Assembly (NCBI GenBank): GCA_048941285.1
Contig: JBHLNS010000003.1
Span: 83,736 to 147,735 of the forward strand
Origin: Promethearchaeota archaeon
GTDB taxonomy: Archaea; Asgardarchaeota; Lokiarchaeia; Sigyniarchaeales; SOKP01
Reading direction: 5' to 3'
DNA: 64,000 nucleotides
Positions 1,759-56,976 of the stretch are shown here, one piece after another; position 1 is the stretch's first letter, and the number at the start of each line of letters is the position of its first letter. The notes beneath the pieces were generated by a model. That model saw only the letters and a program-made list of their open reading frames with translations, was not told where the DNA came from and made no database searches. Made by a program: the position numbers and the translations under genes.

Positions 1759-1762
1759 AAAA

Positions 1763-17042: not shown

Positions 17043-19169
17043 ATGACAACTCCTCTTTCAACGCCTAGTAGCCCAATTAATAAAATTCAACGCTTTGAGG
17101 ATTTTTATCGACTATTTCAAGAAAGTCCGGGTATATATAAATATCAAGATCAAATTAATGACATCTATGCAAAAGGTGGAAATACACTAATAATACTATT
17201 TGAAGATCTATTAGCGAGTGATCCCGACATTGCAGAAATGCTTAAAAGAGATCCCGAAGCGATAATTGAGGATGCAGTTGACGCCTTCAAAAATTTGTTA
17301 AAATTTCAAGGCTTAAAATTAACTAATAAAGACTACTTTGTAAGAATAACAACGAAAGATAAAAATAGTCCCCTTTTTCTTCCTTTAAGAGGTTTAAGAG
17401 CAAAACACATTGATACTCTTGTTTGGTCTAAAGGGATCTTAGTCAGATGTTCTACAATAAGACCAAAAATTATAAAAGCATCTTTTGAATGTAATTTATG
17501 TGGAGCTCAATTCGATGTTATTCAGTTAACTTCAAGAATAAGATGGCCCAAATTTTGTACAAATAAACGGTGTAAGGCTAAAGCTCAGACAGATTTTAGA
17601 CTAATATCAAAACATTCAGAATTCATCGATTGGCAGTCAATAATGATACAAGAAATACCAGAAGATTTACCTCCTGGTAGAATTCCCAGATCAGTTCAAG
17701 CTATTTTAACTCATAATTTAGTTGATACAGTAAAGCCTGGGGATAGAGTTAAGATGATGGGTATTTTTAAATCAGTTTTAGCTCAATCAACTAAGAGCAA
17801 TAATTCTACATTATTTAAGACATTCTTTGATATCAATTTTATTGACCCTGAGGATAAAACTGAGGATATCATTGATCTTACCAAAGAGGATAGAAAAAAA
17901 ATAGAGGACTTGTCTAAGGAGCCTTTTATACAAAAAAAAATCGCAAGATCAATTGCTCCTGACATATATGGGAGAGAAGATCTTAAAATTGCATGTGCTT
18001 TAAGTTTATTTGCAGGAACAAGAAAAAAGAAACCTGGAGGAGGCTATAAAAGAGGTGATATCCACATATTATTTGTTGGAGACCCTGGAACTGGAAAATC
18101 AGAGATTCTAAAAAGTGCCATAGAAGTATCTCCAAGAGGGTTATATACTTCTGGGAAAGGTTCAACAGCTGTAGGTTTAACTGCTGCTGTAATTAAAGAC
18201 ACAGACACTGGTCAGATGAACCTTGAAGCAGGTGTGGTTGTGTTAGCAAATGGAGGTGTCGCAGCAATAGATGAATTTGATAAAATGGATACTGCAGATA
18301 GATCTGCTCTTCACGAAGCTATGGAACAACAAACTGTAAGTATTGCTAAGGCGGGAATTGTTGCTACATTGAAAGCCCAAACTGCAATAATTTCGGCAGC
18401 TAATCCTTATTCTGGAAGATATGATAGATATAAGACACCTACCCAAAATATTCGACTACCTCCTTCTCTTTTATCTCGTTTTGATTTAATTTTTGTGGTT
18501 GTTGATAGACCAAATCCAGCAGATGATGCACAAATGGCTGAATTTATATTAAAAAATTCTATGTTAGATCCAGAGGAATCAATGGATGAAAATGATACTT
18601 CTATAGCTCCAATCTCAAGTGATCTTTTAAAAAAATACATCAAACACGCTCGTAGAAATTATAATCCAATATTGTCAGATGAGGCTAAGGAAAGAATAAA
18701 AGAATTTTACTTAGAATTAAGGGGCCAATATGATAGTGAAGATGCAATTATTTCAATTTTGGCAAGAAATTTAGATGCCTTAGTAAGACTCAGTGAATCC
18801 TATGCAAAAATGGCTTTAAGAAATAAAGTTCTAAAAGAAGATGTTGATGAAATTATTAAACTATTTAAAAGATATTTAAAAGATACAGGTTATGATGAAA
18901 CAACTGGCAAAATTGATATGGATAGAATATTCGTTGGGCAATCCAGGAGCAATCTTAATAAACTAGAAACTCTAATGAATAGATTAAAAGAAATCTTTGA
19001 AGAAAATAATTGGAAAGCTCTTGAGAAATCAAATGTTATTCAAATTCTAGAATTAGAAGAAAATTTAGATAAAAAATTTATTGAAACTGCTCTAGAAGAA
19101 TTACTAAAAGAAGGAACTCTATATGAACCAAAAAGTAGCCAGATCAAATTCACAAACAAAGAAATTTAA
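17043..19169 (+). CDS. mcm: MCM replicative helicase.
   Basis: Zinc motif CNLCG..FCTNKRC, Walker A GDPGTGKSE, Walker B AAIDEFDKM and arginine finger SRFDLIF are all present. Length is 708 aa and no intein is visible. Confidence 0.92.
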   Translation: MTTPLSTPSSPINKIQRFEDFYRLFQESPGIYKYQDQINDIYAKGGNTLIILFEDLLASDPDIAEMLKRDPEAIIEDAVDAFKNLLKFQGLKLTNKDYFVRITTKDKNSPLFLPLRGLRAKHIDTLVWSKGILVRCSTIRPKIIKASFECNLCGAQFDVIQLTSRIRWPKFCTNKRCKAKAQTDFRLISKHSEFIDWQSIMIQEIPEDLPPGRIPRSVQAILTHNLVDTVKPGDRVKMMGIFKSVLAQSTKSNNSTLFKTFFDINFIDPEDKTEDIIDLTKEDRKKIEDLSKEPFIQKKIARSIAPDIYGREDLKIACALSLFAGTRKKKPGGGYKRGDIHILFVGDPGTGKSEILKSAIEVSPRGLYTSGKGSTAVGLTAAVIKDTDTGQMNLEAGVVVLANGGVAAIDEFDKMDTADRSALHEAMEQQTVSIAKAGIVATLKAQTAIISAANPYSGRYDRYKTPTQNIRLPPSLLSRFDLIFVVVDRPNPADDAQMAEFILKNSMLDPEESMDENDTSIAPISSDLLKKYIKHARRNYNPILSDEAKERIKEFYLELRGQYDSEDAIISILARNLDALVRLSESYAKMALRNKVLKEDVDEIIKLFKRYLKDTGYDETTGKIDMDRIFVGQSRSNLNKLETLMNRLKEIFEENNWKALEKSNVIQILELEENLDKKFIETALEELLKEGTLYEPKSSQIKFTNKEI

Positions 19170-19690
19170 TAAAATTTATTTAATACAAGTTCAGCTATCA
19201 TTTCAAAGGCACTTTCAACATTTTCACCTGTTTTAGCAGAAGTATATATAATTGAAATCGCATTAATTTCTTTCCCTAAAGAATAAATCTCTTTGTCACT
19301 CAATTCTTTTTCTAAATCAGTTTTATTAGCTATTAGTACAACAGGAGCCTTTTCGCAATATTGTTTTATATCGGGAACCCAAAAATGATTAATTTGATCA
19401 AATGTATTTTTTCTCGTTAGGTCACCCACAATGAGTACTCCTTTTGCTCCAACATAATAAGAACGTCTCATATTTATCCAGCGTTCTTGTCCAGCTATAT
19501 CCCACAGTTGAATTCTTACCTTACCTAAATTTTTAATATTAACTTTCTTGATAAAAATATTAGTTCCAATACTTGATCGATAATCTTTGGCAAATTGCCC
19601 CGATACAAACTTTTTGACTAAACTAGTCTTGCCTACAGCAGGTTCTCCAACAATGATAATTTTTATACTAAGTTTCTTAACTTTTTTCAT
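19166..19690 (-). CDS. Ras-superfamily small GTPase, Rab/Ras-like.
   Basis: G1 GEPAVGKTS, a switch I Thr (SIGTNIF), G3 WDIAGQER, G4 NKTDL and G5 TSAK are present. Length is 174 aa with no C-terminal Cys. Confidence 0.85.
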   Translation of the reverse strand: MKKVKKLSIKIIIVGEPAVGKTSLVKKFVSGQFAKDYRSSIGTNIFIKKVNIKNLGKVRIQLWDIAGQERWINMRRSYYVGAKGVLIVGDLTRKNTFDQINHFWVPDIKQYCEKAPVVLIANKTDLEKELSDKEIYSLGKEINAISIIYTSAKTGENVESAFEMIAELVLNKFY

Positions 19691-19808
19691 ATTTAACTAC
19701 ATCTATGAAGAAAATTTTATAAGTATATATGTAAATATTAAAATAATTGAAGTTTAAAATTATTGATTTGAATTCAGAAAATAAATAATAAAGTAAAACT
19801 TCGTAATT

Positions 19809-20900
19809 ATGACAACTGGAATAGTATATGATAATATTTACTTGGAACATAAAATAGGAACCCATGTAGAAAGCCATGAAAGATTAATCGCAATTATGGA
19901 TTTTTTAAAAGAAAAAAAATTACTTGAAGACCCCAGTTTTAGAATTATTAAGCCAAGGAAGGCGACTCTTGACCAGATAAAATATGTACATAATGAAGGT
20001 ATAATAAAAGAAATACAAGAAATTTGTGAATTAAGTGCTAAAACGCACCGTCTTCAATATATAGACATGGACACCATCGCGTCTCCTAGAACTTATGAAG
20101 CTTCGTTATTCTCAGTAGGTGGAAATTTACAGGCTGCAGATGAAATTTTAGACGGTAAAGTAAAGAATGCTTTTGCTTTAGTTAGACCCCCTGGGCACCA
20201 CTCTAATTCTCATCGATTCGCGGGGTTTTGCATTTTCAATAATATTGCTGTTACTGCGGAATACCTCTTTAGAGAAAAAGCTATAAAAAAAGTAGTTATT
20301 ATTGATTGGGATTGCCACCATGGAAATGGGACACAAGATATATTTTATCAAGGTTCTAAATCCGATTCTGGTGAATTAGTAATATTTAATTCTCATCAAT
20401 ATGGATACTTCTATCCAGGATCTGGAAATTTTGATGAAATTGGTAATGGTAAAGGTGCCGGTAAAATCATTAATTATCCAATGCCTGCTGGCTCAGCAGA
20501 TGATGTAATACCTATTTATTTCAACGAAATAATTAAACCTATCTGTGAAGAATTTAAGCCAGAATTCATACTAATATCTGCAGGTTTTGATACGCATTGG
20601 ACAGATCAGTTAACGAATATGAACTGGACTTATCAAGCTCCTGCAGAATATTTACAGAAAATCAGAACAATAGCAAAAAAATATGCTAACGAAAGAATTT
20701 TAATTACTTTAGAAGGTGGATACCAGATAGATAAACAAGCGAGAGCAGTTTATAATTGTCTAAGAGTTCTTAATAACGATGATAATAAAATGGTAAAAGA
20801 GGAAATTAGGTCCTCAGGACAAAAATTACTAGATTATTATTATAACAAATTAATTCCGGCTTTAAAGGATAAATTAAATCCATATTGGAATTGTTTTTAA
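19809..20900 (+). CDS. Histone deacetylase-family (HDAC/AcuC/acetylpolyamine amidohydrolase-type) zinc deacetylase.
   Basis: Motifs present are RPPGHH, DWDCHHGNGTQ, SAGFD and LEGGY. Confidence 0.8.
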   Translation: MTTGIVYDNIYLEHKIGTHVESHERLIAIMDFLKEKKLLEDPSFRIIKPRKATLDQIKYVHNEGIIKEIQEICELSAKTHRLQYIDMDTIASPRTYEASLFSVGGNLQAADEILDGKVKNAFALVRPPGHHSNSHRFAGFCIFNNIAVTAEYLFREKAIKKVVIIDWDCHHGNGTQDIFYQGSKSDSGELVIFNSHQYGYFYPGSGNFDEIGNGKGAGKIINYPMPAGSADDVIPIYFNEIIKPICEEFKPEFILISAGFDTHWTDQLTNMNWTYQAPAEYLQKIRTIAKKYANERILITLEGGYQIDKQARAVYNCLRVLNNDDNKMVKEEIRSSGQKLLDYYYNKLIPALKDKLNPYWNCF

Positions 20901-21007
20901 GTTATAACATACAAACACTTTTATATTTACATTTATGCTATAATCATAATTACTCCTATAAAATTATAGAAATATTTTTAATGTAATTAAACAATAAGGA
21001 GATTAAT

Positions 21008-21922
21008 ATGTCGTACGAATATGAAAGAAATGATAATGATAAAGAAAAGAAAAAAAAACAAGCCTCTTTTCCATCAATGCCCCCACCTTCGGTAACTCCA
21101 TTAACACCACCTCCTTCTATGGGTCCGCCTTCAAGAACGCCTCCAATGATGCCTCCCTCTACTTTACAACCTCCTACTCCTTCAGCATATGAACCAACTC
21201 CTCCCCCTACTATGGAATATATAGCTGAACCAATTAGTCAAACTATTCCTTCTATTTCCACAGGACCTTCACAAGATGAATATAATTCAATATATTCCCA
21301 ACTACAAGAAAAAGATTCAAGTTTAAATCAATTGCAGTCCCAAATTAGTGATTTAAGCAGTCAAACTTCCCTATTAAATGCTCAACTTAAAGAAAAAGAT
21401 AACCAAGTAAATAGATTAACAAGTCAATTACAATCTCTGCAATCTTCAAATGAATCCTTCCAGCAACAGGTTCAACAATTAACCAATCAAAATGCCCAGT
21501 TGCAAGCCCATATCCCGGGATTGGAACAACAGGTTCAAGAGTTGCAGCAACATAATTCAATTTTACAGCAACAAATTGGTCCTTTACAAGCACAGATAGC
21601 CAAATTACAAGAAGAAATATTATATAAAGAAAAGCGAATACAAGAATTAAAAGAACCGAAAGCAGTTATGCCTTCTAGTTTAGCACAAGGGATCACAAAT
21701 CAATCAACAACTTATAGTACTACTCCAAGTATGTCCGCCACCCCGACATCAACTCCAACACCATCCACTTCGATGGGATCAGGAAGAAGACTATGTCCTA
21801 ATTGCGGAGCGAGTGGATTTGCAGTGAAAGAAGTAGAAGATAGAACAAGAATCATTAGCTATATCCCCAAACCTATCTACGCAAAAAAGCTAGTATGTAC
21901 TAAATGCGGATTTGAATTCTAA
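21008..21922 (+). CDS. Low-complexity protein with a Pro-rich N-terminus, a Gln/Leu-rich coiled coil and a C-terminal zinc ribbon.
   Basis: The N-terminus reads PPPSVTPLTPPPSMGPPSRTPPMMPPS. About 120 aa of heptad-like Q/L repeats follow (QLQSLQ..QQQVQQL..). The C-terminus has CPNCG..CTKCG. Confidence 0.5.
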   Translation: MSYEYERNDNDKEKKKKQASFPSMPPPSVTPLTPPPSMGPPSRTPPMMPPSTLQPPTPSAYEPTPPPTMEYIAEPISQTIPSISTGPSQDEYNSIYSQLQEKDSSLNQLQSQISDLSSQTSLLNAQLKEKDNQVNRLTSQLQSLQSSNESFQQQVQQLTNQNAQLQAHIPGLEQQVQELQQHNSILQQQIGPLQAQIAKLQEEILYKEKRIQELKEPKAVMPSSLAQGITNQSTTYSTTPSMSATPTSTPTPSTSMGSGRRLCPNCGASGFAVKEVEDRTRIISYIPKPIYAKKLVCTKCGFEF

Positions 21923-22172: not shown

Positions 22173-25100
22173 ATGTCAGATTTAAGAGATGAATTATTAA
22201 AAGGCGGTATCAATAAAAAAAGGGTTATAGGAGTAGCATTAGTCGCAATCCTTTTGATTGGTATGTTTGCGTTCTCTACAGTTCTACTTAGTTTTCTTTT
22301 TGGAACTCAAAGACCAAACCCTAATAAGGAAAAAGCTGATACTCCATGGGAAGATGCCGATTTAATTGATAATTATCCCTTTGATGAGGATTTTTGGCAA
22401 GATTTGTTAGATCAAGTAGATGATCCCGCTTCTCTTCTTGATATGTTATCAGAAATGTTTGATGGAAATATTGATGATTTAGATTTAGGTAATTTTTCTC
22501 AAGGATTACTTGATCTTCTCTATTCAGGAGCGGGAGAAATTGAAGTTTTTAGAGTGTATAACTATCTCTTATTTGATAATATGGAAGATGTTTTATGGAA
22601 ATATGAAGCCTTTGATGAATACAATGGTGAGGGTTGGACGTCAAATGCAGTTAGTAATCTTTACAATTTCTACACTTACGGTGATTATCTCGCAAATTAT
22701 TTCCCCGATCCTGAAATTTTAAAATTAAAAATGCCTTTATCTCCTAATATTGGGCTTAATTCGATGAATCTACCTACTCTCTTTCCTAGTCCTTTTGTTA
22801 TGGATACAATTTCTGCACCTAATTTAAATCCGACTCCACGTACATTATATAAAGATGAATATAATTGTACCACAATAGATCTTTCATTTTCTTCTGCTGA
22901 TGATGTAAATATGACATTTGAGATATTTGGTTTTTATAATTCCTTACCATCAAATGAAGAATTGAACAATAGTGCAGTTATTGTTACTAATCCTACGCCT
23001 GAGTATTTGAGTTTAAAGAATAAATTTTTACAATTACCTCCTACAATTCCAGTCTATAAGACTAATAATCCCTATTTTACTAATCACTTTAATATCCTTA
23101 ATAATCAAATAAATGTAAATGATCATGCTTTTTGGAAAGCAAATAAAATCAGAAATTATTTGCAAACTCAATTTTCATTTCCAATGAATCCTACCGACTT
23201 TAATCCTGCTCCAGATGGAAGAGACATTGTTGATTGGTTTTGTCAAACTCAACAAGGATTATGGTCTGATTTTGCTTCAGCTTTTTGTGCTTTTGCAAGA
23301 GCTTTTGGAGTTTTGTGTCGATTTGTTGATGGCTTTAATAGTATGATGATTGAAGAAATTTGGGATAATGATGAAGGTCAATGGGGATTCGCGATAAAAT
23401 ATAAAAATCTTTATAATTGGGCAGAGATATATGTCCCAACCGATATTTATGGAAATGGAAAATGGGTACAATTTGATATTTTTGACAGCTTTGGAGGTGG
23501 AGGAAGCCCAATAATTGGAGGGAATTATAACATTACAGTTTCAACCGATCAAGCTGCCTATAACCGACCAGATACAGCTAGTATAACGGCTAGTGTTAAT
23601 TCAAACACAAACCCAATAAATAATTTAACTATAACTTTCAGAGATTATACTACTGGGAGAATACTAGGACAAGATGATACAGATTTGAGTGGAATTGCTA
23701 CAATCCAGACTAATTTTAATGCTACTGACATCGTTGGTCCTCATTTAATTGAGGCAAGATATGATTTTTTTAATGCAGGTTATAATCTTACGACTATATT
23801 GGGAGATATTTCAATTGCTTTAACTAATGTTAACCCTGGACAAATAAATGTCTCTGATTATCTACCAGATGTTACTAATGTTGCAGGGTTTGTATATGAT
23901 CCATTAAATGGAAATGGAGTAAAGGGTCCTGAATTAAATATCCGCTTGTTAAGAAAGGGAACCAATAGTGAAATAATTAATCCATTTTCGCCTTCAGCAA
24001 TAAATACTACATATGATGGTGATTTCAGTGATTTCTTGAATCTTAATCACAATACTGCTGGAAATTATGAAATCCGAGCTGATCTTAACGGAACTTGGTG
24101 GGTTGACACTCCTTTTGGGCCCTATTCATACGCTCTCTTATCTTTCATATTTCAAGTTCCTTATTTCTATATATCAAATTCAAGCAATAGACTTGATTTT
24201 AATATCACAAAATCTTTAGATGTGTGGTTTTATATCGATGGTTCACCATCGAATTATCCGAATATACCTAGAGTTTCTAGATACCATAATTTAAATCTAA
24301 CTGCGGAGGTATTTTCGGTTACTTCGGGACCAATATCAAACAAACGTGTATTTTTTTATGATCATTCAAGAGGAGATATTCTGATTGGCTCTGACATTTC
24401 AGATCTAAATGGGATTGCCTCAATTATTTATTCTGTTGGAGATAATTGTGCTGCTGGACCTAATTTATTATATGCAAACATTGGTTTACAAAGTAATTAT
24501 TCTTATTATATCTTAGATGAACAGCCTACAATAAATATACTTTCTGGCCCAACACCTCGTATTATAAACCGTACGGGTGGTGGTGCGACGGAATTTAATA
24601 TTATTGGAGAAATTGTTGATAGCACAAATAACTCTTTACCTATAAAATATTCTGAAATTAGCTTAATTTTATTGAAGAGTGGATTGGATTATTCATCATA
24701 TTTAAACCCAAGTGATAGTTATCCTTATCAAACTGATGAAACAGGTACTTTTGATTTGACATTCGGAGTAGCTGCCAATATACCCCCTGGTAATTATACA
24801 CTAAGATTAGATTTTAATGGTACTATTAATCTTTCATCCTATCCTTATTCGTATCTTTTCAATATACCTTACTTAAATACTTCTACTTACTTTGTTAATG
24901 AATTACAAATCGATTCACCAACCAGTTTACAATTTGATTTTTGGATAAATGGAATTGCATCTGATGATGCGATCAATCCAGTTATTAATCGTAATGATGA
25001 TCTTAATCTCACAGTATTGATTCAATATAGTGGTATGCCAATAGACGATGGAGAATGGGTTTACTTCTATGATTTCACTCAAGATAATCTGTTTATTGGT

Positions 25101-26651
25101 TCAGATCAAACAAGTTCAGGGAATGCTGAAATTATTTATTCTACAGGATTGAATACTACAGCAGGCCCACATCTGATTTATGCCACATGGAATAATAAAT
25201 ATAATTATTCTTATTTTATTTTGGATGCCCCTATAAATGTGAATCTTGATATCTGTCCACAACCTAGGGAAGTCAATCGCAGTGGAGCAGATGGGAGAAA
25301 TTTCTTAATTCATGGATATCTAAATGATGCTTTTAATGGAAATCCAATAAAAAATGGAGAAATAAATGTCTTTATGTATGATGGACCTACTGACGTATCA
25401 TTTTATTTAAATCTAGTTTCAGGCTCTTTACAATTAGGGTCATCAGGAGAAATAGATTTAACTTTTTCCGTTTCAAGCTCAACTCCCGCTAAAAATTATA
25501 CTTTACGAGTTAATTTTTATGGTATTTTTATATATACAAATCCTTATTATCCTCAATTTTTCAATTTATGGTATATAAATAATTTTACAGATACAGCTCC
25601 TGGTTTAAATGATCTCAGAGTTATCGATCCAAATGATGTAGATATTTACTTCTTTATAGATGGAAATCCAACACAAACGTTTTATTGGGATGGGAATCCT
25701 CCTGAGATATATAATCGAGGAGATCTAATCAATTTCAGTGTATTTATTCTTCAAAGTGGACTTCCAGTTAGTTCTGGTACTGTTTCATTTACAGATATTT
25801 ATACGGGTACCCCATTGGGAACTCAATCTGTAATTAATGGAAATGCTTCTATTATAGTTGATACTTCTAGTTGGCATGCGGGACTTCATCAAATAAGAGC
25901 TCAATGGTCTGGATCTGATACAACAAATATGACATATGTGGTGATAAATGAACATATTAACATTTTTAGCAATACAGATCAAAGTTCAATTTTAAGAGAT
26001 ATTGATAATTTTATTGTTTCAGGTACAGTCAGGGAACATGGAGAATTTTTAAGAGGCCTAAATCTAAATATTGTTTTATTAGATAACTCTTATTCTGACG
26101 TTTCAGGTCTATATTTAATTGGTGCTCAGACATTAACTATTAATAATGATGGAACTTATCAATTTTTTAACTCAATCGCCTTATCTTGCCCACAAGGAGA
26201 TTATTTTATTAACATTAGTTTTACAGGTGGTTTAAACGCTCCAGGAATATCTATGAGTGATTATATGGTTCATAATAGTAGCTTACTAATCTCAATTGAT
26301 ATTACCGCAAGTACTTATATTCTTGGAAATTATGAGACTAACGTCGTTAAAGATGATTGGTATTACGGTGACGATTGTTATGTGTATGGAAATCTATATT
26401 GGGATAATGGAACTGCAATACCGTTTATGGAAATTAATGTGACTATTAGAGATGGAACGGGATCAATCTTAGCTACTCAAGTAGGATTTACTGATATCAA
26501 TGGATTTTTTAATCTAACTTTTATTGTCGGAGATTGGTTAGATAACACCGAAGTTTGGGTCAACTTTTATCCCGATGATCCAGACAATTTTGGTGTTCCT
26601 GAGGGATTATTTATTATTTTAACAGAGCAAGAAGTGTTTAGGCAAGTTTAA
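22173..26651 (+). CDS. Giant N-terminally anchored surface protein with a transglutaminase-core-like domain (catalytic residues substituted) and four tandem Ig-like repeat units.
   Basis: One N-terminal TM span is present. QQGLWSDFASAFCAFARAFGVLCRFVDGF..YNWAEIYVP..KWVQFD aligns to the G-x-C-x-x-FA..R..G-x-P-x-R / H-A-W / D pattern. Repeated ~230-aa units follow, with many N-x-S/T sequons. Confidence 0.7.
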   Translation: MSDLRDELLKGGINKKRVIGVALVAILLIGMFAFSTVLLSFLFGTQRPNPNKEKADTPWEDADLIDNYPFDEDFWQDLLDQVDDPASLLDMLSEMFDGNIDDLDLGNFSQGLLDLLYSGAGEIEVFRVYNYLLFDNMEDVLWKYEAFDEYNGEGWTSNAVSNLYNFYTYGDYLANYFPDPEILKLKMPLSPNIGLNSMNLPTLFPSPFVMDTISAPNLNPTPRTLYKDEYNCTTIDLSFSSADDVNMTFEIFGFYNSLPSNEELNNSAVIVTNPTPEYLSLKNKFLQLPPTIPVYKTNNPYFTNHFNILNNQINVNDHAFWKANKIRNYLQTQFSFPMNPTDFNPAPDGRDIVDWFCQTQQGLWSDFASAFCAFARAFGVLCRFVDGFNSMMIEEIWDNDEGQWGFAIKYKNLYNWAEIYVPTDIYGNGKWVQFDIFDSFGGGGSPIIGGNYNITVSTDQAAYNRPDTASITASVNSNTNPINNLTITFRDYTTGRILGQDDTDLSGIATIQTNFNATDIVGPHLIEARYDFFNAGYNLTTILGDISIALTNVNPGQINVSDYLPDVTNVAGFVYDPLNGNGVKGPELNIRLLRKGTNSEIINPFSPSAINTTYDGDFSDFLNLNHNTAGNYEIRADLNGTWWVDTPFGPYSYALLSFIFQVPYFYISNSSNRLDFNITKSLDVWFYIDGSPSNYPNIPRVSRYHNLNLTAEVFSVTSGPISNKRVFFYDHSRGDILIGSDISDLNGIASIIYSVGDNCAAGPNLLYANIGLQSNYSYYILDEQPTINILSGPTPRIINRTGGGATEFNIIGEIVDSTNNSLPIKYSEISLILLKSGLDYSSYLNPSDSYPYQTDETGTFDLTFGVAANIPPGNYTLRLDFNGTINLSSYPYSYLFNIPYLNTSTYFVNELQIDSPTSLQFDFWINGIASDDAINPVINRNDDLNLTVLIQYSGMPIDDGEWVYFYDFTQDNLFIGSDQTSSGNAEIIYSTGLNTTAGPHLIYATWNNKYNYSYFILDAPINVNLDICPQPREVNRSGADGRNFLIHGYLNDAFNGNPIKNGEINVFMYDGPTDVSFYLNLVSGSLQLGSSGEIDLTFSVSSSTPAKNYTLRVNFYGIFIYTNPYYPQFFNLWYINNFTDTAPGLNDLRVIDPNDVDIYFFIDGNPTQTFYWDGNPPEIYNRGDLINFSVFILQSGLPVSSGTVSFTDIYTGTPLGTQSVINGNASIIVDTSSWHAGLHQIRAQWSGSDTTNMTYVVINEHINIFSNTDQSSILRDIDNFIVSGTVREHGEFLRGLNLNIVLLDNSYSDVSGLYLIGAQTLTINNDGTYQFFNSIALSCPQGDYFINISFTGGLNAPGISMSDYMVHNSSLLISIDITASTYILGNYETNVVKDDWYYGDDCYVYGNLYWDNGTAIPFMEINVTIRDGTGSILATQVGFTDINGFFNLTFIVGDWLDNTEVWVNFYPDDPDNFGVPEGLFIILTEQEVFRQV

Positions 26652-26661
26652 TAGTTTAAAG

Positions 26662-28272
26662 ATGGTGAAATTAAAGATAATGATAAATTTCAGAATTCCA
26701 AAATATATAAAAAAAAAATCTAAAATATTATGGATTTCTGTTATGTTATTAATTATTTTTTTTAATATAACACTATATACTAATCTTTTTTCGAATAGTT
26801 CTTACCTTAAACCTAAAAATAACCCAAAAATGTCTTGGTTTTGGGCAACATTAGATCTTACAAATCCAAGTGAAGTTAATAATTCAAGGTTTACTCACTC
26901 TGAGTTTATTTCTGTTAAAGGACATGTCTATAACAAAATTGATAAAACTAATAAATCAGGAATTAACGTTGCTATTGAAATAGATGATAGTGTTGATCTG
27001 AGTTATACAGATATAACCGATGGGTGGGGTAGATTTAATATTAATTATATGATTGATCCCTTACTTGATATTTATTCAAGTCATAAAATAGAAGTGATAG
27101 TAACAGATACAGAACCAGGAGGGCCTGGAAGTGAAATCGAATATCACCATTTCTATATCATAAATGTAAATGCTACATCATATTTTGATATTATTTCGTA
27201 TGATGATTTATCAAACCCTAAATTAACTGAAGAAGATTTTAATTTAAATGGATTTATATATTATGACAATGGAAATGGAATCCCTTTTGTAAGTGTTAGC
27301 TATTATTGGCTAGATGGACCTTCAATTATCTCTCAAAGTTCTTTTTTTACTGATGCTACAGGTTCACTAGAAAGCGTACAAGTTCCGATCACAGCTTCAA
27401 GTCAATTGTCTCTGAAATTTAATTACTCAGATACGCCATTTGTTGAATACTCAGAAATCTCAATTTCAAATATTAAAGTATTTTCTGATGTAGCATGGAA
27501 TTTAGACATTGAATATACAACGAGAGAAGGAGCCGCATATGATTTAAGTGGGACTCTAACATCTCTAACAGATCCTACACTAAGAATTAGTAATAGAGAT
27601 GTTGAGGTTTATTTTAATGGTAGCTATGTTGATACAGCAACAACGGGGTCTAATGGTAGATTTACCTCTAGCTTTCAAGTTCCACAAGGTAATGGTACAG
27701 CATCTATTCAAGTTCAATTAGTTAATTCAGCAGGAAAAGACATTAGATCACCTGTCCAATATATATTAGTGGAACCAGCGCTTCCATCAAATCCAGGAGG
27801 AGGTGATTTGCCCCCATTCTTGATTTTTTCTTTAATATTTTTTCCAATTTTGGCGGGTATTGTTGCAGGCTTAGTAGTATATGGTTTAAAATATTATAAA
27901 AAACAAGAAAAAGAATCCCGGGTGGTAAATCTACCACTCGAATCAAGAATTAAAAATCTTAAAATTTTAAAAGATTCAGGAAGATTAGAAGAATCGATAT
28001 CGTATTTATTTAATGCTATTTATATGGATTTAATTAATGCTAAATATAATAGAATAAGAAAAGAAAACGAGACAATTAGAGACTTTGCAATTGTTTCAGT
28101 AAAAGAATTAAAATTAACACCATCCTCAATTTACCCTTTTATTCAAAAAGTTGAGGAAATAATATACGCAAAACCTTTTAAAATAACAGAAAAAGATTTC
28201 TATAATACTTGTGAATTATTTTCACCAATATACTTCCAATTAACTGGATTTAATTTTACTTTAAATTTTTAA
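26662..28272 (+). CDS. Bitopic membrane protein with an Ig/CarboxypepD_reg-like ectodomain and a cytoplasmic DUF4129-like tail.
   Basis: There is an N-terminal TM span and a second TM span (FLIFSLIFFPILAGIVAGLVVYGL). The C-terminal ~100 aa are clearly paralogous to the next ORF. Confidence 0.55.
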   Translation: MVKLKIMINFRIPKYIKKKSKILWISVMLLIIFFNITLYTNLFSNSSYLKPKNNPKMSWFWATLDLTNPSEVNNSRFTHSEFISVKGHVYNKIDKTNKSGINVAIEIDDSVDLSYTDITDGWGRFNINYMIDPLLDIYSSHKIEVIVTDTEPGGPGSEIEYHHFYIINVNATSYFDIISYDDLSNPKLTEEDFNLNGFIYYDNGNGIPFVSVSYYWLDGPSIISQSSFFTDATGSLESVQVPITASSQLSLKFNYSDTPFVEYSEISISNIKVFSDVAWNLDIEYTTREGAAYDLSGTLTSLTDPTLRISNRDVEVYFNGSYVDTATTGSNGRFTSSFQVPQGNGTASIQVQLVNSAGKDIRSPVQYILVEPALPSNPGGGDLPPFLIFSLIFFPILAGIVAGLVVYGLKYYKKQEKESRVVNLPLESRIKNLKILKDSGRLEESISYLFNAIYMDLINAKYNRIRKENETIRDFAIVSVKELKLTPSSIYPFIQKVEEIIYAKPFKITEKDFYNTCELFSPIYFQLTGFNFTLNF

Positions 28273-28386: not shown

Positions 28387-28764
28387 ATGGCACAAAAGAA
28401 AAAAAAGCAGGCAGAACCAGAGATTAATATTAAGCAGAAATTTGATAACGTGAAGATTTTAGTTGACACTAACAGACCCAAGGAGGCAATAGCTTATATA
28501 TATCTAGTATATGATGATCTAATTAATATAAAATTTAAAAAACCCAGATTAGCTCATCAAACAATTCGCGAATATGCTATCGCCTGTGTAAACCAATTAG
28601 AAAACAAATTAAAACCAGAATTTGTGTATCCATTTATAAAAAAAATAGAAGATATAATCTATGGTGGGGTTGAACCTACAACTAAAGACTTAAATTTTAC
28701 AATTGATTTGTTTGCTAACTTATATAACGAAATAACGGGGAAATCTTTCACTTTTAGCCTGTAG
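28387..28764 (+). CDS. Small soluble DUF4129-like protein.
   Basis: It aligns by eye to the C-terminus of the upstream gene (EAIAYIY..QTIREYAIACV..VYPFIKKIEDIIYG versus ESISYLF..ETIRDFAIVSV..IYPFIQKVEEIIYA). Confidence 0.5.
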   Translation: MAQKKKKQAEPEINIKQKFDNVKILVDTNRPKEAIAYIYLVYDDLINIKFKKPRLAHQTIREYAIACVNQLENKLKPEFVYPFIKKIEDIIYGGVEPTTKDLNFTIDLFANLYNEITGKSFTFSL

Positions 28765-28819: not shown

Positions 28820-30604
28820 ATGGTAAAACAAGCAAAAGCATCTCAAAAGAGTATTAATATTTCAAAAGGTATAGTTTTTTCTTTCCTAACTATATATTTA
28901 GTCGTTTTTGGAGTTATCATTAGTGATTTTGTCATCCACATTCAACAAGAAAATCCAACTGAATTGCCCGTTTGGTGGGGTATTTTATCCTATGTTCCCC
29001 TTTTATGTTATTTTGGCGCAATTTTTAGTGGAGTTTTTCTTATCATATTTTTAAGAAATGCTACAAGTGCAAAAATTCGTCAAACACAATCAAGAAAGAA
29101 GATTAAATCGGGTTCAATATATAAACAAGCGTTATTTGTCATTATTTTTATCTTTGCTTTTGTTCCTTTACTTTCTCCTATAATTGATCAAGGAGTTAAT
29201 AATCAGAATTTTTCAGTTTATAATTCCGCTTGGAATGGGGCTTCAGACTTTAAAAAAGCTATTGAAGATGATGGGTATGATGTTATGACGGTACAATCAA
29301 GTCTGAGTGCTACTGATCGTTTAATAAATACAACCATTAATAATAATAGAAAGGAATCTATATTGTTGATTTTACTAGGTCCAAATCAATTTTATGATCC
29401 TATTTTTGAGATACCTTATTTTATTGAATTTTTTAAAGGAGATAATTCACTTCTAATATGTCATGATCATGGATCCACAAGTACGTTATTATGGGAAATT
29501 CTAGTCGCAAGTTTATTTGATCCCACTATTAATATTCCATTAACAATATTTCCTAATGGGATTTTACGAGATAATGAATCTTATAACCCTACCCCTGAAT
29601 TTCCCGTGATTAAGAATTTTGCTTCTCATCCAACAAGAGATACTCCATACTTTATTAATGAAGTTATACTTTCAGTTGCTTCTTGTGCTGTAGGAGGACC
29701 TTTTCTTAGTGGATTCGGTTGGACTTCTGTAGGTACTTCCCAACCTCATTCATTTGTAGATAAAAATAATGATGGGAGATATTCCGAACCTGAAGATGCC
29801 CTTAATTTGGGTTTTATGAGTCTTATAGACTTAGGTTTCCCACTTCCTACCACATTTCCGCTTGGAGTATATGAACAGCATGTATTTCTAGCCAACGATA
29901 TGGGAAGACAACGATTATTTGTATCTGCTGATGCTAGCTTGTTTAATAATGAATTAATTAATGAACCTGGTTATGATAATATGCTATTTGGATTAAATAT
30001 TATCCAATGGCTAACTCAAGTAAATGAAGGAAAGACTAGAGAAGAATGGATTGTTGTTTTTGATGAAGCCCATATTAGACCAGAATATTCGCGAGACCTT
30101 TCATCAGCAGGAATTTTTGGATATGTTATGCAATACATTGTACATTTATCAACAAATCCTATCACAGCATGGATTTATCCTCTACTTGCTTTTTATACAT
30201 TAAGAAAATACCTTCCAAAAAAAGATAAAAAGAAGGAAGAACAAAAAATAGCAGAACAAGAAGAAAAAAAAGAAGAAATAGCTAGATTTAGAACCTCTTC
30301 CTTTTTTGCACAGAAAATTGAGGAATATAAAGATAAAATGAAATACGGAGATGCATTGAAACTGCTTTATAGAAGATTAGAAAGAAAATTAAATAGTCAA
30401 TTAGGAGGAGCAAAAATTACAACACAAAATGTGGTAGATTTAGTTATTGCTAAAGACCCCTCAACCACCAAATTAAAAACTAGGAGATTGAGTAAGTTTA
30501 TAGATAAGATTTTAGCAATTAAAGAAGGAAAAGATAAAGTTAAAACTGAACAAGATTTCGAAGAATTGTTTTTCGAAATGGACTGGGCAGTTAATAATAT
30601 TTAA
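28820..30604 (+). CDS. DUF4350-like membrane protein with an extracytoplasmic domain and a charged cytoplasmic tail.
   Basis: Three N-terminal TM spans are followed by a ~300-aa exported domain (LLILLGPNQFYDP..LLICHDHGS), a fourth TM span and a K/E-rich tail ending in a DUF4129-like helical segment. The position next to MoxR/DUF58 fits the known neighbourhood. Confidence 0.45.
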   Translation: MVKQAKASQKSINISKGIVFSFLTIYLVVFGVIISDFVIHIQQENPTELPVWWGILSYVPLLCYFGAIFSGVFLIIFLRNATSAKIRQTQSRKKIKSGSIYKQALFVIIFIFAFVPLLSPIIDQGVNNQNFSVYNSAWNGASDFKKAIEDDGYDVMTVQSSLSATDRLINTTINNNRKESILLILLGPNQFYDPIFEIPYFIEFFKGDNSLLICHDHGSTSTLLWEILVASLFDPTINIPLTIFPNGILRDNESYNPTPEFPVIKNFASHPTRDTPYFINEVILSVASCAVGGPFLSGFGWTSVGTSQPHSFVDKNNDGRYSEPEDALNLGFMSLIDLGFPLPTTFPLGVYEQHVFLANDMGRQRLFVSADASLFNNELINEPGYDNMLFGLNIIQWLTQVNEGKTREEWIVVFDEAHIRPEYSRDLSSAGIFGYVMQYIVHLSTNPITAWIYPLLAFYTLRKYLPKKDKKKEEQKIAEQEEKKEEIARFRTSSFFAQKIEEYKDKMKYGDALKLLYRRLERKLNSQLGGAKITTQNVVDLVIAKDPSTTKLKTRRLSKFIDKILAIKEGKDKVKTEQDFEELFFEMDWAVNNI

Positions 30605-30670: not shown

Positions 30671-31651
30671 ATGGAAGCTCCGGATAAAGCAAAATATTAT
30701 GACCATGAGGAAATTGATGTAGCACCTATAAGAGAAATAGCACAGGAAGTTTTAAGTGAAGTAAGCCGAGTTATTGTAGGAAATGGTGAAATTTTACAGC
30801 AACTCTTTATAGCTTTACTTGTAAATGGGCATGTACTATTAGAAGGAGTACCAGGTCTGGGTAAAACGGTAATGGCTAAAACTTTTGCCAAAACTCTAGG
30901 TATTTCATTTCGAAGAGTTCAATTTACTCCTGATTTGTTACCTGCAGATATTACCGGTACAAAAATATTTGATCAGAATGAAGGTGCATTTGTACTTCAA
31001 AAAGGACCGCTTTTCGCTAATATGGTACTAGCTGATGAGATTAACAGAAGTGCACCTAAAACACAAGCAGCTCTACTTGAAGCTATGGCTGAACGACAGA
31101 TAACAATTGAGGGTCAGACTTTACCGCTTGAAAAACCCTTTATTGTTGTTGCAACAGAAAACCCTGTAGAAATGGAAGGGACTTATCCACTACCAGAAGC
31201 TCAAGTTGATCGATTCTTATTTAAACTATGGTTAGATTATCCTGAACAAGACGAAGAAGTAGAAATTATGCGACGGCAAATTTCAGGTGAATCACCATCA
31301 GTTGAAATAATCACAACTGGCGAAGAAATCCTCGCAGCACAGAAAATTATGAATTTAGTCTATATTGACGATCGAATTTTAAAATATGTTCGTGATATCA
31401 TTTTAAAAACTAGAAATCATCCTCAGATAGCCCTTGGTTGTGGGCCAAGAGCCAGCTTAACCCTTATGAAGTGTGCTAAAGCCCGTGCTGCAATACTAGG
31501 CCGATCATACGTGACTCCTGATGATGTACGAGCATTAATCGTACCAGCATTAAATCACAGAATTCTTCTAAAACCAGAAGCAGAATTGGAAGGACTTGAT
31601 ACAAAGGCTGTTCTAAAATCAATTGTTGAAGAAATACCAATCCCTATCTAA
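30671..31651 (+). CDS. moxR: MoxR-family AAA+ ATPase.
   Basis: Walker A LLEGVPGLGKT is followed by FRRVQFTPDLLPADITG. Walker B VLADEINRSAPKTQAALLEAMAERQITIEG is present. Length is 326 aa. Confidence 0.9.
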   Translation: MEAPDKAKYYDHEEIDVAPIREIAQEVLSEVSRVIVGNGEILQQLFIALLVNGHVLLEGVPGLGKTVMAKTFAKTLGISFRRVQFTPDLLPADITGTKIFDQNEGAFVLQKGPLFANMVLADEINRSAPKTQAALLEAMAERQITIEGQTLPLEKPFIVVATENPVEMEGTYPLPEAQVDRFLFKLWLDYPEQDEEVEIMRRQISGESPSVEIITTGEEILAAQKIMNLVYIDDRILKYVRDIILKTRNHPQIALGCGPRASLTLMKCAKARAAILGRSYVTPDDVRALIVPALNHRILLKPEAELEGLDTKAVLKSIVEEIPIPI

Positions 31652-31866: not shown

Positions 31867-33048
31867 ATGAATATAGAAGAATTACGAGTGCATAGAGAAC
31901 TTGAAAAGGAAAAAATATTCAAAGATGATTTCGTTCATGTCAAAGTAGTAATAGAGAATATTGGACGCAACAGTTTTGATTTTATTGAAATAAGAGATAA
32001 CTACAATCCTCAACTTTTTAGGTTAATTTTAGGTGAAAATTTTATCTCTACTAGAATTGGCCCAAAAGATCTAATTAAATTTTCTTATGTCCTTGAGCCA
32101 AAAGTAAGAGGAGAATACGCTCTTGGGCCTTTATCAATTATTGTGAAAGATAGATTAGGATTTAATTCAGTTGAAAGAATCGTACCAGATAGTGTTACTG
32201 ATATTCTCATTTATCCGCCTTATGAAGACATTAAAAGAATTGAAATTTTAGGTTCAAAACGATCTTTGCAATTAAATTATGGATTACAAAGATCGAAGCA
32301 GAAAGGTCTTGGATCAGAGTTTTATGGAATGAGGAAATATGTTTTTGGAGATCAATTCAGATTGATAGATTGGAAAGCAAGTGCTCGATCTCAGACCTTA
32401 ATCGTAAAGGAATATGAAAGTGAAAGGGATGTAACTGTAATGATTATAGTAGATTCATCAGATACAATGGCAGGAGGAGCAATTGAAAATACAAAATTTG
32501 AATATGCAATAAGGGCCTGTATGCTTCTAACAAAAGTAGCATTGACACGAAGAGATAATGTAGGAGTTTTTACTTTTTCAGATAAGAAGAATTTAAATTT
32601 TTTAAGACCGAATAGTGGAGAAGACCATTTTTATAAAGTTCTAGATTTTGTCGCAAGGATTAAACCTCAAGGAAGGTGTAAATTCATTGAAGCTATGGAT
32701 AATTTCACAAAACGCTTTCAAAAACGAAGTTTAGTTTTTGTTATATCTGATTTGGAAGCAAATCCTAAGGATATTTCTGAGGCTGTTAGAAAGTTAGTCC
32801 CATTTAACCATACTATTATAATTATTAATCCATTCAGCCCTTGGTTTGAAATTCATGAAGTAGACTTATCTTCAACAGATAAAGCATTAGCAGAAGCAAT
32901 TAGTGAAGAGATGATGGAACACATTTTATCTATTAGACAAAACCTTCGAAACTTAGGAATTAATATAATAACTTGTGGACCTGATGATATGATGAATCAA
33001 GTTTTGAGTAATTATATGGAAGCAAAAAAAAAGGGGAAGGCGTATTAA
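31867..33048 (+). CDS. DUF58 (vWA-like) protein. The annotated ATG probably truncates a membrane-anchoring N-terminus (see findings).
   Basis: The DUF58 signature FYGMRKYVFGDQFRLIDWKASARSQTLIVKEYESERD is followed by a vWA-like IIVDSSDTM. The 162 nt upstream are in frame, stop-free and hydrophobic. Confidence 0.8.
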   Translation: MNIEELRVHRELEKEKIFKDDFVHVKVVIENIGRNSFDFIEIRDNYNPQLFRLILGENFISTRIGPKDLIKFSYVLEPKVRGEYALGPLSIIVKDRLGFNSVERIVPDSVTDILIYPPYEDIKRIEILGSKRSLQLNYGLQRSKQKGLGSEFYGMRKYVFGDQFRLIDWKASARSQTLIVKEYESERDVTVMIIVDSSDTMAGGAIENTKFEYAIRACMLLTKVALTRRDNVGVFTFSDKKNLNFLRPNSGEDHFYKVLDFVARIKPQGRCKFIEAMDNFTKRFQKRSLVFVISDLEANPKDISEAVRKLVPFNHTIIIINPFSPWFEIHEVDLSSTDKALAEAISEEMMEHILSIRQNLRNLGINIITCGPDDMMNQVLSNYMEAKKKGKAY

Positions 33049-33051
33049 GAA

Positions 33052-34518
33052 ATGGCTCGTGGGTATTTATTATCACTAAAGATAATCAATCTTGCCGTAT
33101 TCTCCTGGCTATTTATTATTTTCCTTACTTCAATTTTTGATTTTAATGCTGTAGTTGTAACAGCAGATAATCAATTCGTGATATTTGCCTTTTTAGGAGC
33201 ATTAAAAAATGTTTTCTCATATTTGATTTATGGATTATTTTTCGTTATTGCTTATGGCTTAGCTTTTATTTTTGGAGGTGTTTTTAACAGCTATTTGTTT
33301 AATTTTGTTGAGGGTTTTTTTCAGGGATATTTGAGTAAATGGTTTTCAATTCCTCAACCAGAATTGCAAAACATTCCTACTTTAATATTAAACGAGTTAG
33401 GCGTCCTTTTTAATGATTTTTATTTATTTATTTTTCAAATTTTATTTGTTATTTCAATCATTTATGCTATTAGAGGTTTCTTCAAAAGTGATCCAAGAAA
33501 TTCTTTTATTGCAATCGGATCAATCGTACTTATGATTATAGTTCCTCTAATGGTTGTTGGGTTAAAAGAGATGTTAAATCTTTTTATAGGAAATCTCCCT
33601 CCAGAAAGTAGACCAGATTATGTACAATATATTTATGAAATGGCTTCAACGAATCCTCTCAATGACAGCCTAACTCAAATTCCTATTGATAATTTGTTCC
33701 AGTTTTTAGCAAATCCAGTTATTTTATTTGCTATAATATCATATGTTTATCTCGAATTAACATTTCAAATTAATTACGCTGATACGGTTACTAAACCTTC
33801 ATTAGAGAGAAGTGAAAGATTGGAAGCTCAACTGAATATTCTAGCAAGAGAATCACATTTTATCACTGCTAATATTGATAAAATAAAAACGGAAGCCAAG
33901 GAAAGAATGAAAGAAATTGAAGCAGAGCAACAAGAAGATTTGATTGTTGGGAAATTTTTTGCAAAGACAGGTAAGCGATTTTCCTATGTAAAAGAAATGA
34001 TAGAAAAGAAAAAATTAGAGGAAGAGGAAAAAAAATTAGTAACAGCAGCTTCAAAAACGAGAAGACTTGGGCGGTATATAGATCGTCTATTTCGAGAAGA
34101 TCCTGAAGCAAGAGATACATTAACTGCAAGTTCTTCTGCTCCTAGAGCTCGTAATTTAGCAACATCTACATTATTTAACTTTATTTATCGCGTAGGTTTA
34201 CTTATGATCATAAGTTTTATCATTATTCACCCACATTGGTTTTTGGCTACAGTTATTCAATTACCGGATGCAATTACCGAAAGTGTTGCAATGTATTCTC
34301 CCGAAGTCATTATTATCTTACTCCTGCCAATTATGTTAATTTTTCCAGTAATATCAAAATTAATTTCGTTTATCAAACATAGAAATTTGATAATTCGATT
34401 ACAACAAGAAGGACGGATAAAGGAACTTCTGATTTCAGTTGGAGATTATGTTATAAAGGAAGAAGCTAAAGCTGCTATGGACGAACAAACTGAAGAAGTA
34501 GTAACTGAATCTACCTAA
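33052..34518 (+). CDS. Polytopic membrane protein with a central charged coiled-coil loop. Function is unknown and it is the last gene of the MoxR cluster.
   Basis: It starts 3 nt after the DUF58 stop. There are about 6 N-terminal TM spans, a K/E-rich helical segment (KTEAKERMKEIEAEQQED..KKKLEEEEKK) and 2-3 C-terminal TM spans. Confidence 0.45.
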   Translation: MARGYLLSLKIINLAVFSWLFIIFLTSIFDFNAVVVTADNQFVIFAFLGALKNVFSYLIYGLFFVIAYGLAFIFGGVFNSYLFNFVEGFFQGYLSKWFSIPQPELQNIPTLILNELGVLFNDFYLFIFQILFVISIIYAIRGFFKSDPRNSFIAIGSIVLMIIVPLMVVGLKEMLNLFIGNLPPESRPDYVQYIYEMASTNPLNDSLTQIPIDNLFQFLANPVILFAIISYVYLELTFQINYADTVTKPSLERSERLEAQLNILARESHFITANIDKIKTEAKERMKEIEAEQQEDLIVGKFFAKTGKRFSYVKEMIEKKKLEEEEKKLVTAASKTRRLGRYIDRLFREDPEARDTLTASSSAPRARNLATSTLFNFIYRVGLLMIISFIIIHPHWFLATVIQLPDAITESVAMYSPEVIIILLLPIMLIFPVISKLISFIKHRNLIIRLQQEGRIKELLISVGDYVIKEEAKAAMDEQTEEVVTEST

Positions 34519-35466: not shown

Positions 35467-35472
35467 AACTTA

Positions 35473-53554: not shown

Positions 53555-53669
53555 TAAAATGATAATAAGGTTTTATTTTTTTTTGAAATTAGTATTATTT
53601 TGATACGAAAATTTGACAGTACGCAGTAAGTAATATAAATAAAAATCCTAACTATCAAGGATTAAAAGA

Positions 53670-53963: not shown

Positions 53964-54013
53964 ATATATGTAATAATTATTAAATAATTATAATAAAAAT
54001 GACGTGAGAGATA

Positions 54014-54235: not shown

Positions 54236-54390
54236 TGTTAAAAATAAATTAAGTATAATTTAAAATTACTTATTATATAAATACCTTAAAACATATAAAA
54301 TTTTATTTCGACATATAAAAAAAATTTTCATAAGTTTTTATTAATTATTTACATTACTTTTAGATAATTTCAAGGAAAAGTTTTAAAATT

Positions 54391-56280: not shown

Positions 56281-56292
56281 AATTTCTTTTAT

Positions 56293-56928: not shown

Positions 56929-56976
56929 AGTCTAACCAATGAAGATTTAATAATTTTATCATAAATTTTATACATT

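Follow-up and report, generated by a model that had tools for sequence, protein, structure and literature searches.

A plus-strand gene at positions 22173 to 26651 of a 64,000-nucleotide stretch of Asgard archaeal DNA (hereafter, the window; positions 83,736 to 147,735 of contig JBHLNS010000003.1 of the lokiarchaeal assembly GCA_048941285.1, named Promethearchaeota archaeon) encodes a membrane protein of 1,492 amino acids (aa), here designated TGL1492, which combines a transglutaminase-like (TGL) core with immunoglobulin (Ig)-like repeats. We consider this protein, with a probability of about 0.75, to be the Asgard counterpart of the bacterial transglutaminase TgpA, in which a catalytically dead TGL core serves as a noncatalytic module. 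At the three catalytic positions, TGL1492 carries Trp in place of Cys, Tyr in place of His, and the usual Asp. Because both the nucleophilic Cys and the general-base His are absent, thiol-based transamidation, deamidation, and proteolysis are not possible.

An earlier note on this DNA, made from its letters alone, had described the domain as a pseudoenzyme that is retained as a binding or scaffolding fold or else uses a noncanonical mechanism. The pseudoenzyme reading is now strongly supported: the replacements are seen in 81 genomes, no alternative Cys or His is invariant, and distant orthologs also differ at these positions. Orthologs of TGL1492 were found in 80 Asgard species genomes, and the gene heads a conserved cluster with genes for a MoxR-family ATPase, a DUF58 protein, and several membrane proteins.

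The transglutaminase-like core and its catalytic positions

The TGL (papain-fold) core occupies residues 317 to 435 of TGL1492 (23121 to 23477, plus strand). It is matched by the Pfam family Transglut_core (PF01841) with an E value of 1e-11 and 45.5 bits versus the gathering score of 23, over profile positions 12 to 107 of 108. The similarity is thus not due to chance, and precomputed PF01841 matches are also recorded for most of the orthologs. A scan of TGL1492 against NCBIfam found no family, and a single-sequence search of the PDB with its N-terminal 609 aa gave nothing relevant. Profiles of the domain match TgpA of Pseudomonas aeruginosa (PDB entry 6g49), mouse PNGase (2f4m), 3isr, TG2, and FXIII. 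One of these profiles, A2, was built from the window sequence and 28 orthologs, and another, A4, from an alignment that combines the Asgard domains with canonical TgpA-like domains of bacteria. A4 matches TgpA across the whole core with an E value of 6.9e-27, and its matches to TG2 and factor XIII cover the stretch that holds their triads.

An AlphaFold2 model of residues 100 to 470, built from 41 aligned sequences, has a mean predicted local distance difference test (pLDDT) score of 87.5, with 81 to 97 across the TGL core, and a predicted template modeling (pTM) score of 0.85. In a Foldseek comparison with the PDB, its best match is again TgpA (6g49; E value of 1.6e-11 over 337 columns), followed by 3isr (E value of 1e-5) and 3kd4, with TG2, FXIII, LapG, PNGase, and XPC further down. 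The TgpA match includes a membrane-proximal β-sandwich domain at approximately residues 124 to 254 (22542 to 22934, plus strand), whose strands lie at model residues 25 to 155 with pLDDT values above 90. The order of a β-sandwich followed by the TGL core is the same in TGL1492 and in the periplasmic module of TgpA. These comparisons show TGL1492 to be a homolog of TgpA by sequence and by predicted fold.

The profile alignments also fix the catalytic positions. In the A2 profile, W364 (codon TGG, 23262 to 23264, plus strand) aligns with the catalytic Cys of TgpA (SGFCAHYA) and of mouse PNGase (GRCGEWA), at the N terminus of the active-site helix. The canonical H-x-W-x-E strand reads DAHAWVEYW in TgpA and AHAWPEVY or GHSWPEVY in its bacterial relatives; the segment NLYNWAEIY of TGL1492 places Y414 (TAT, 23412 to 23414, plus strand) on the catalytic His, with N415 as the “x” of the motif. 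The catalytic Asp is kept as D435 (GAT, 23475 to 23477, plus strand), which falls in WVQFD and aligns with the Asp or Glu of WVEFD/EPT. In the predicted structure, a helix begins at residue 364, a strand (413 to 422) begins at 413 to 414, and the next strand ends at 434, which is how Cys, His, and Asp are laid out in a papain fold. The open reading frame (ORF), its frame, and the codons are as the earlier note had given them, and its assignments of W364 to the nucleophile position and of D435 to the retained Asp hold in these alignments. Its statement that the His has been replaced also stands, but the residue it had named, N415 (AAT, 23415 to 23417), is one position off and is ruled out as the His equivalent, since Y414 sits on the His in the alignments with TgpA and with the bacterial H-x-W motifs.

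The substitutions are a property of the entire family. A word-indexed search yielded 41 Asgard homologs, and a profile was run exhaustively against 1.84 billion cluster representatives, which gave 5,236 matches at E values of ≤0.001, including 62 at ≤1e-30. When each GTDB species was represented by a single genome, a scan found 80 loci, all of them in Asgard archaea (Promethearchaeota sensu GTDB), which together with the window make up the 81 genomes used for all conservation counts given here. The three positions read WYD in 65 genomes, YYD in 9, FYD in 4, and SYD and WYE in one each, with a gap in the remaining one. The Cys column thus contains Trp (66 genomes), Tyr (10), Phe (4), or Ser (1), which makes it aromatic in 80 of 81 genomes, and never Cys; the His column is Tyr in all 81, and the Asp column is Asp in 79 and Glu in one, with one gap. 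Comparison with the orthologs, as the earlier note had advised, therefore shows both the aromatic residue at the Cys column and the Tyr at the His column to be conserved. Among approximately 75 cluster representatives (at 50% identity) of this architecture, none has a Cys at column 364. The earlier note had also listed two findings that would refute its reading, namely, a profile alignment that puts another Cys and a His on the catalytic positions and orthologs with an intact Cys-His-Asp triad; no alternative Cys or His falls on these columns, and no ortholog of this architecture has the intact triad.

The rest of the domain is well preserved. Residues 351 to 450 form the best-conserved part of the protein, with column identities of 0.73 and 0.69, compared to 0.41 to 0.65 elsewhere (calculated over 66 full-length orthologs), which shows, at the sequence level, that the TGL core is under strong constraint. 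The invariant residues of the domain (D351, G362, R376, R383, G387, Y414, W416, E418, and P422) largely fall on motif positions that are common to the bacterial TgpA-like domains in the A4 alignment and, judging from that alignment, are generic scaffold residues.

Outside the core, a hydropathy scan of TGL1492 finds a single transmembrane (TM) segment, an N-terminal hydrophobic helix at approximately residues 18 to 44 (22224 to 22304, plus strand) that is preceded by KKR. By the positive-inside rule, the protein is predicted to have an N-in/C-out topology with the remainder outside the cell. Consistent with this prediction, TGL1492 contains an excess of N-x-S/T sequons: there are 35 of them, about 3 standard deviations above composition-matched shuffles and at 3 to 5 times the density seen in the cytoplasmic proteins of the window. 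Residues 266 to 452 have none, so that the TGL core is free of sequons. The core is followed by four tandem Ig-like super-repeats of approximately 237 aa each (residues ∼451 to 1400; 23523 to 26372, plus strand), with a period of ∼236 to 240 aa, 27 to 43% identity among the copies, and E values between copies down to 1e-25. These repeats were detected by comparing sliding pieces of the protein with each other, whereas BLAST of the whole sequence against itself returned the identity match alone. In Pfam, they are matched by Big_3_5, which, like Transglut_core, exceeds its gathering score, and weakly by MG2 and Big_1. Together they make up a predicted distal ectodomain or stalk of approximately 950 aa.

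The gene cluster, distant orthologs, and related systems

TGL1492 is followed by six genes on the same strand, separated by gaps of 3 to 215 bp. The first of these encodes p536 (26662 to 28272), a protein with two TM segments, an ectodomain resembling Ig-like and CarboxypepD_reg domains (weak Pfam matches), and a cytoplasmic DUF4129-like tail. The second encodes p125 (28387 to 28764), a soluble paralog of that tail, whose profile matches residues 414 to 535 of p536 (27901 to 28269 in the window) with an E value of 7e-30. Direct Pfam scans of p125 and of the p536 tail found nothing; their relation to DUF4129 was found through P0138, a fused ortholog of 2,261 aa from a member of Thorarchaeota. 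Residues 271 to 527 of p536 match residues 2010 to 2255 of P0138 (BLAST E value of 1e-13), so that p536 corresponds to the C-terminal Ig-TM-DUF4129 part of the fused protein, and p125 matches the DUF4129 region of P0138 with an E value of 1.5e-8 in a very small database. TGL1492 and p536 thus look like a split version of a single TGL-Ig-TM-DUF4129 gene, with p125 as an extra free DUF4129-like copy.

The next product, p594 (28820 to 30604), has three to four TM helices and a DUF4350-like domain; its Pfam DUF4350 match (E value of 2.5e-5) is below the gathering score, and its homolog in the Thorarchaeota cluster is the DUF4350 protein found there (E value of 3e-43). It is followed by a MoxR-family AAA+ ATPase (30671 to 31651; AAA_3, E value of 3e-64; AAA_lid_2, E value of 3e-25) and a DUF58/vWA-like protein (31867 to 33048; DUF58, E value of 3e-34; VWA_2, E value of 2.5e-10), which has no TM helix in the TM scan and is cytoplasmic. 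The cluster ends with p488 (33052 to 34518), a polytopic membrane protein with about eight TM segments that has no match in Pfam, NCBIfam, or PADLOC. It shares 30% identity (E value of 1e-24) with the protein at the same position in the Thorarchaeota cluster, and in three other distant loci (L085 to L087) this position is taken by an unannotated protein of 390 to 530 aa; a protein of this kind is conserved as the final cluster gene in all Asgard contexts examined. The possibility that p488 is a detached TgpA_N domain was ruled out, as it shows no similarity to the TgpA_N regions of two bacterial proteins, P0042 and P0043.

The order TGL, p536, p125, DUF4350, MoxR, DUF58, p488 is collinear in essentially all of the 80 loci that are long enough, and the GC content of the cluster is the same as that of the window (29%). 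PADLOC gave only generic P-loop matches for the MoxR protein and none for the other six, and the AAA_3 match of the ATPase (E value of 3e-64) is far above the match to bpMoxR (E value of 1e-9); an assignment to antiphage defense, of the MoxR-vWA ternary kind, is therefore not supported.

The same system recurs in distantly related Asgard genomes. P0138 (locus L081, 10001 to 16786; triad P/T), P0095 (L085, 9001 to 12723; triad P/Y), P0167 (L086, 9001 to 12555; triad S/H/D, possibly a serine-type site), and the Freyr-type protein P0192 (L087, 9001 to 13761), which has two TGL domains with C/Y/D and P/Y/D, are all encoded together with DUF4350, MoxR, DUF58, and an unannotated membrane protein, in wholly different flanks. 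In P0138 and P0192, the TGL part is fused to a C-terminal TM segment and a DUF4129 domain annotated in Pfam; a weak TgpA_N match is recorded for P0095 alone. All components are pairwise homologous between the window cluster and the Thorarchaeota cluster. These comparisons show, by sequence, a conserved MoxR-DUF58-DUF4350-DUF4129 cluster of five to seven genes in Asgard lineages. The triads of the distant orthologs differ while the cluster persists, and this provides the strongest argument that the system can do without TGL catalysis.

Upstream of the TGL1492 gene, positions 17043 to 21922 encode MCM, a Ras-family GTPase (minus strand), a histone deacetylase family protein, and a coiled-coil protein that is rich in Pro and carries a CxxC...CxxC zinc ribbon at its C terminus. 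This block is syntenic in most of the 80 Loki-type genomes and absent from the Thor-type, Freyr-type, and other Asgard contexts; it therefore probably represents lineage synteny and not a part of the system.

Among the known systems, the best structural and profile match to TGL1492 is TgpA (PA2873) of P. aeruginosa, which is encoded in the operon PA2875-2872, has an intact triad in a periplasmic TGL domain, and showed transglutaminase activity in vitro, in an assay with CBZ-Gln-Gly and biotin-cadaverine (PMC3507681). The two proteins resemble each other in the location of the TGL module, which is extracytoplasmic in TgpA and predicted to be so in TGL1492, in being clustered on the same strand with genes for a MoxR AAA+ ATPase and a DUF58/vWA protein (PMC3507681), and in a TM segment with a cytoplasmic DUF4129-type tail, which is fused in the Thor- and Freyr-type proteins and split off into p536 and p125 in the window. 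They differ in that TgpA keeps Cys-His-Asp where TGL1492 has Trp for Cys and Tyr for His; that TgpA has a polytopic TgpA_N region (DUF3488, PF11992), whereas TGL1492 has a single TM helix and no PF11992 match; that the core of TGL1492 is followed by ∼950 aa of Ig-like super-repeats; and that the Asgard cluster additionally encodes DUF4350, p125, and p488.

Two other bacterial systems share the core of MoxR, DUF58/vWA, and a membrane-linked TGL protein. Zhang and Aravind proposed in 2012 that MoxR-vWA-YebA(TGL) forms a membrane-proximal, ATP-dependent degradation system and described inactive TGL domains as peptide-binding modules (PMC3495828). The bifidobacterial PFNA cluster comprises FN3, MoxR, DUF58, and transglutaminase proteins (PMC8430577, PMC12067865) and is also similar in coupling a surface protein with β-sandwich (FN3) repeats to this core, although the Asgard repeats are a fused part of the TGL protein. 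The Asgard cluster differs from both in carrying DUF4350 and the novel polytopic protein, and the YebA degradation model, which requires an active TGL peptidase, is inapplicable to TGL1492.

Dead TGL domains have also arisen in bacterial versions of the system. In a set of approximately 120 bacterial proteins related to a TgpA-like protein from Dehalococcoidia, the triad is C-H-D/E in 100, and 17 TgpA-like proteins from Chloroflexota read F/W/S, Y/F/W, and N/S/T. One of the 17, from a Dehalococcoidia MoxR-DUF58-TGL/DUF4129 operon (locus L083, 3787 to 8556), reads W/F/N, and the other sixteen have F/S, Y/F/W, and N/S/T. Directly downstream of this operon, on the opposite strand, lies a second, Bat-like operon with MoxR-DUF58-BatA-vWA/TPR genes. 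The dead Chloroflexota proteins (e.g., P0042, from a Dehalococcoidia metagenome-assembled genome) resemble TGL1492 in their TgpA-type architecture, DUF4129 tail, MoxR-DUF58 operon, and aromatic residues at the Cys (W/F) and His (F/Y/W) positions, but they also lack the Asp (N/S/T), have a polytopic N terminus, and have no Ig-repeat stalk. As they are only ∼30% identical to the Asgard family and show no special affinity to it, the loss of the catalytic residues in Chloroflexota was probably independent of the loss in Asgard archaea. Since the replacements are aromatic in both groups, exchange of the catalytic dyad for aromatic residues is, judging from these alignments, recurrent in this system.

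Inactive TGL domains have been catalogued in Rad4/XPC, EPB42, CC2D2A, FBXO21, and menin (PMC10318531), and those of Rad4/XPC, EPB42, CC2D2A, and Cyk3 have been described as binding or scaffold modules, with peptides, DNA, or proteins as the bound partners (PMC3495828, PMC10318531). TGL1492 resembles Rad4/XPC, erythrocyte band 4.2 (EPB42), CC2D2A (MKS6), Cyk3, and FBXO21 in that the fold is kept and the catalytic residues have been lost group-wide. These eukaryotic families differ from it in architecture and location, TGL1492 being a surface ectodomain, and the aromatic/Tyr/Asp pattern is distinctive of TGL1492. The best 150 of the 5,236 profile matches all look prokaryotic and include no Rad4/XPC, EPB42, or CC2D2A proteins; the structural match to XPC, with an E value of ∼0.1, is weak. 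Dead TGL domains, like operons of the MoxR-DUF58-TGL type, have been known before, and our literature search found no description of the Asgard family or of its dead triad.

Possible roles of the transglutaminase-like domain

In the reading that we prefer, strong purifying selection keeps the TGL fold as a noncatalytic module for interaction or scaffolding, which sits at the membrane-proximal base of a surface-exposed protein. W364 and Y414 probably fill the former catalytic cleft as an aromatic pair, and the hydroxyl of Y414 may form a hydrogen bond with D435, a putative geometry that would explain why the Asp is retained. The site could thereby have become an inert plug or, alternatively, an aromatic-lined pocket that binds a peptide or glycan ligand. 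TGL1492 would work within the membrane system encoded by the cluster, together with p536, p125, DUF4350, MoxR, DUF58/vWA, and p488. Within that system, MoxR and DUF58 presumably form a chaperone or remodeling pair that serves the complex from the cytoplasm; the DUF4129 tails and the membrane subunits are the plausible route for this action. The earlier note had favored a structural surface complex over cross-linking or proteolysis. Such a complex is consistent with the evidence, but the cluster encodes an ATPase-associated membrane system and not a purely structural coat.

Several points weigh against this interpretation. The loss of activity of TGL1492 is deduced from sequence alone, and the extracellular location and N-glycosylation of the protein are predictions; a glycoproteome study of P. 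syntrophicum reported few glycoproteins (PMC11284389). The fixation of the replaced positions (Y414 invariant, residue 364 aromatic in all but one genome, D435 in all but two) is tighter than expected for a site that was merely abandoned and would be compatible with a new role in chemistry or ligand binding. In addition, the S-H-D set of P0167 could be a serine-type active site.

The alternatives can be ranked, with pseudoenzyme-enzyme pairing as the most plausible of them, followed by noncanonical catalysis, the use of another Cys and His, and artefact. Pairing of a pseudoenzyme with an active enzyme is a general theme, and the dead domain might be a regulatory or decoy partner of an active TGL protein encoded elsewhere in the genome, with surface cross-linking or proteolysis still being the output. 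Multidomain TGL proteins that mix Cys-bearing and Cys-less repeats are indeed common among the distant matches (for example, P0077 to P0094), and one of the two TGL domains of the Freyr-type protein P0192 keeps its Cys. However, neither the ORFs of ≥100 aa in the 64-kb window nor the conserved cluster yielded a second TGL domain, the Loki-type clusters hold the dead copy only, and the Cys-bearing Freyr domain (C/Y/D) has no His, which makes this arrangement unlikely.

Slightly less probable still is that the domain remains an enzyme with a noncanonical mechanism, for example, one based on a Tyr414/Asp435 dyad, on a Ser such as S365, or on an aromatic-assisted reaction with a glycan or peptide. 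Such a mechanism would fit the near-complete fixation of residues 364, 414, and 435 described above, the location of the site within the most conserved stretch of the protein, and the S-H-D set of P0167; TGL domains with Ser in place of Cys have been proposed to be active (PMC3495828). On the other hand, the positions vary across the wider Asgard family (P/T, P/Y, A/H, D/H, and C/Y), where no alternative set is conserved, and S365 is itself unconserved, being replaced by Pro, Thr, Val, Ala, Asn, or Ile. We know of no papain-fold enzyme with a Trp/Tyr/Asp set.

It is very improbable that the W/Y assignment is an alignment artefact and that another Cys, such as C357, C372, or C382, acts together with some other His, even though three Cys lie within 20 residues of W364 and two of them, C357 and C372, each occur in about 90% of the orthologs. 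Four independent lines put W364 on the Cys (the MAFFT alignment with canonical bacterial proteins, the Asgard profile on TgpA and PNGase, the mixed profile on TgpA, TG2, and FXIII, and the predicted secondary structure). C357 is kept in 73 genomes and replaced by Leu or Ser in the other 8, C372 is kept in 70 and replaced by Val, Ser, or Thr in 11, and 65 genomes have Ser at the position of C382; the domain as a whole has no invariant Cys and no conserved His. Being unconserved and off the catalytic column, these three residues are ruled out as the nucleophile. A disulfide between C357 and C372 was likewise ruled out, as the two are lost independently of each other and their positions show no covariation. 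Finally, a sequencing or assembly error, or a decaying pseudogene of a protein with an intact Cys-His-Asp triad, is already refuted by the ortholog data: the 4.5-kb ORF is intact, the substitutions recur in 80 species-level genomes and in dozens of metagenomic proteins, the domain is under stronger constraint than the remaining protein, and the cluster does not deviate from the window in its GC content.

If TGL1492 is the noncatalytic surface protein that we favor, it may be considered, as a speculation, a candidate for the “complex surface proteins” that were described for “Ca. L. ossiferum,” which has no ordered S-layer (PMC9834061). A much bolder and, in our view, improbable extension would have the pocket repurposed for lectin-like or peptide binding in an Asgard-specific, MoxR-powered trans-membrane surface machine that forms the surface proteins seen in cryo-electron tomography of Lokiarchaeia and mediates syntrophic contacts, with the inactive MoxR-linked TGL lineage also being the source of the eukaryotic CC2D2A/CEP76-type TGL domains. 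Zhang and Aravind have linked inactive TGL domains of the CC2D2A/CEP76 type to the eukaryotic MoxR-derived dynein/midasin ATPases (PMC3495828).

Public annotation labels the Asgard relatives as “transglutaminase domain-containing” proteins or as a “putative cysteine protease,” which invites the wrong inference that proteins are cross-linked or proteolyzed on the surface of Asgard cells. The present analysis reassigns the family to a noncatalytic role and nominates TGL1492 as a conserved candidate for Asgard surface structures. It also indicates that the widespread MoxR-DUF58-TGL system can function where TGL catalysis is absent, a point against “ATP-dependent degradation” as the way in which the system works in general. 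Current concepts are not overturned, given how common dead TGL domains are.

Other genes in the window

Elsewhere, the window encodes MCM, topoisomerase VI, a Ras-family GTPase, a HEAT-repeat protein, and a homolog of ribophorin I. The latter (54391 to 56280; PF04597, E value of 5.7e-12), a eukaryotic-signature subunit of oligosaccharyltransferase, is found in an N-glycosylation neighborhood (51317 to 58590) among GT1/GT4, DUF354, and Glycos_transf_4 genes. The gene for the topoisomerase VI B subunit (7136 to 10486) encodes 1,116 aa, with a match to the transducer domain only at residues 712 to 856; the usual length of this subunit is about half of that. Positions 19 to 4111 encode a 579-aa VWA_2 protein followed by a 782-aa protein that has no family match, a pair that could be another vWA-containing module, with no MoxR gene adjacent to it within the window. 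Beyond the end of the TGL1492 cluster, on the minus strand (34537 to 36891), are the F420 biosynthesis genes for CofD and for CofE (F420-0:gamma-glutamyl ligase) fused to a nitroreductase domain, and these are followed by two radical-SAM genes and a gene for lipoate-protein ligase.

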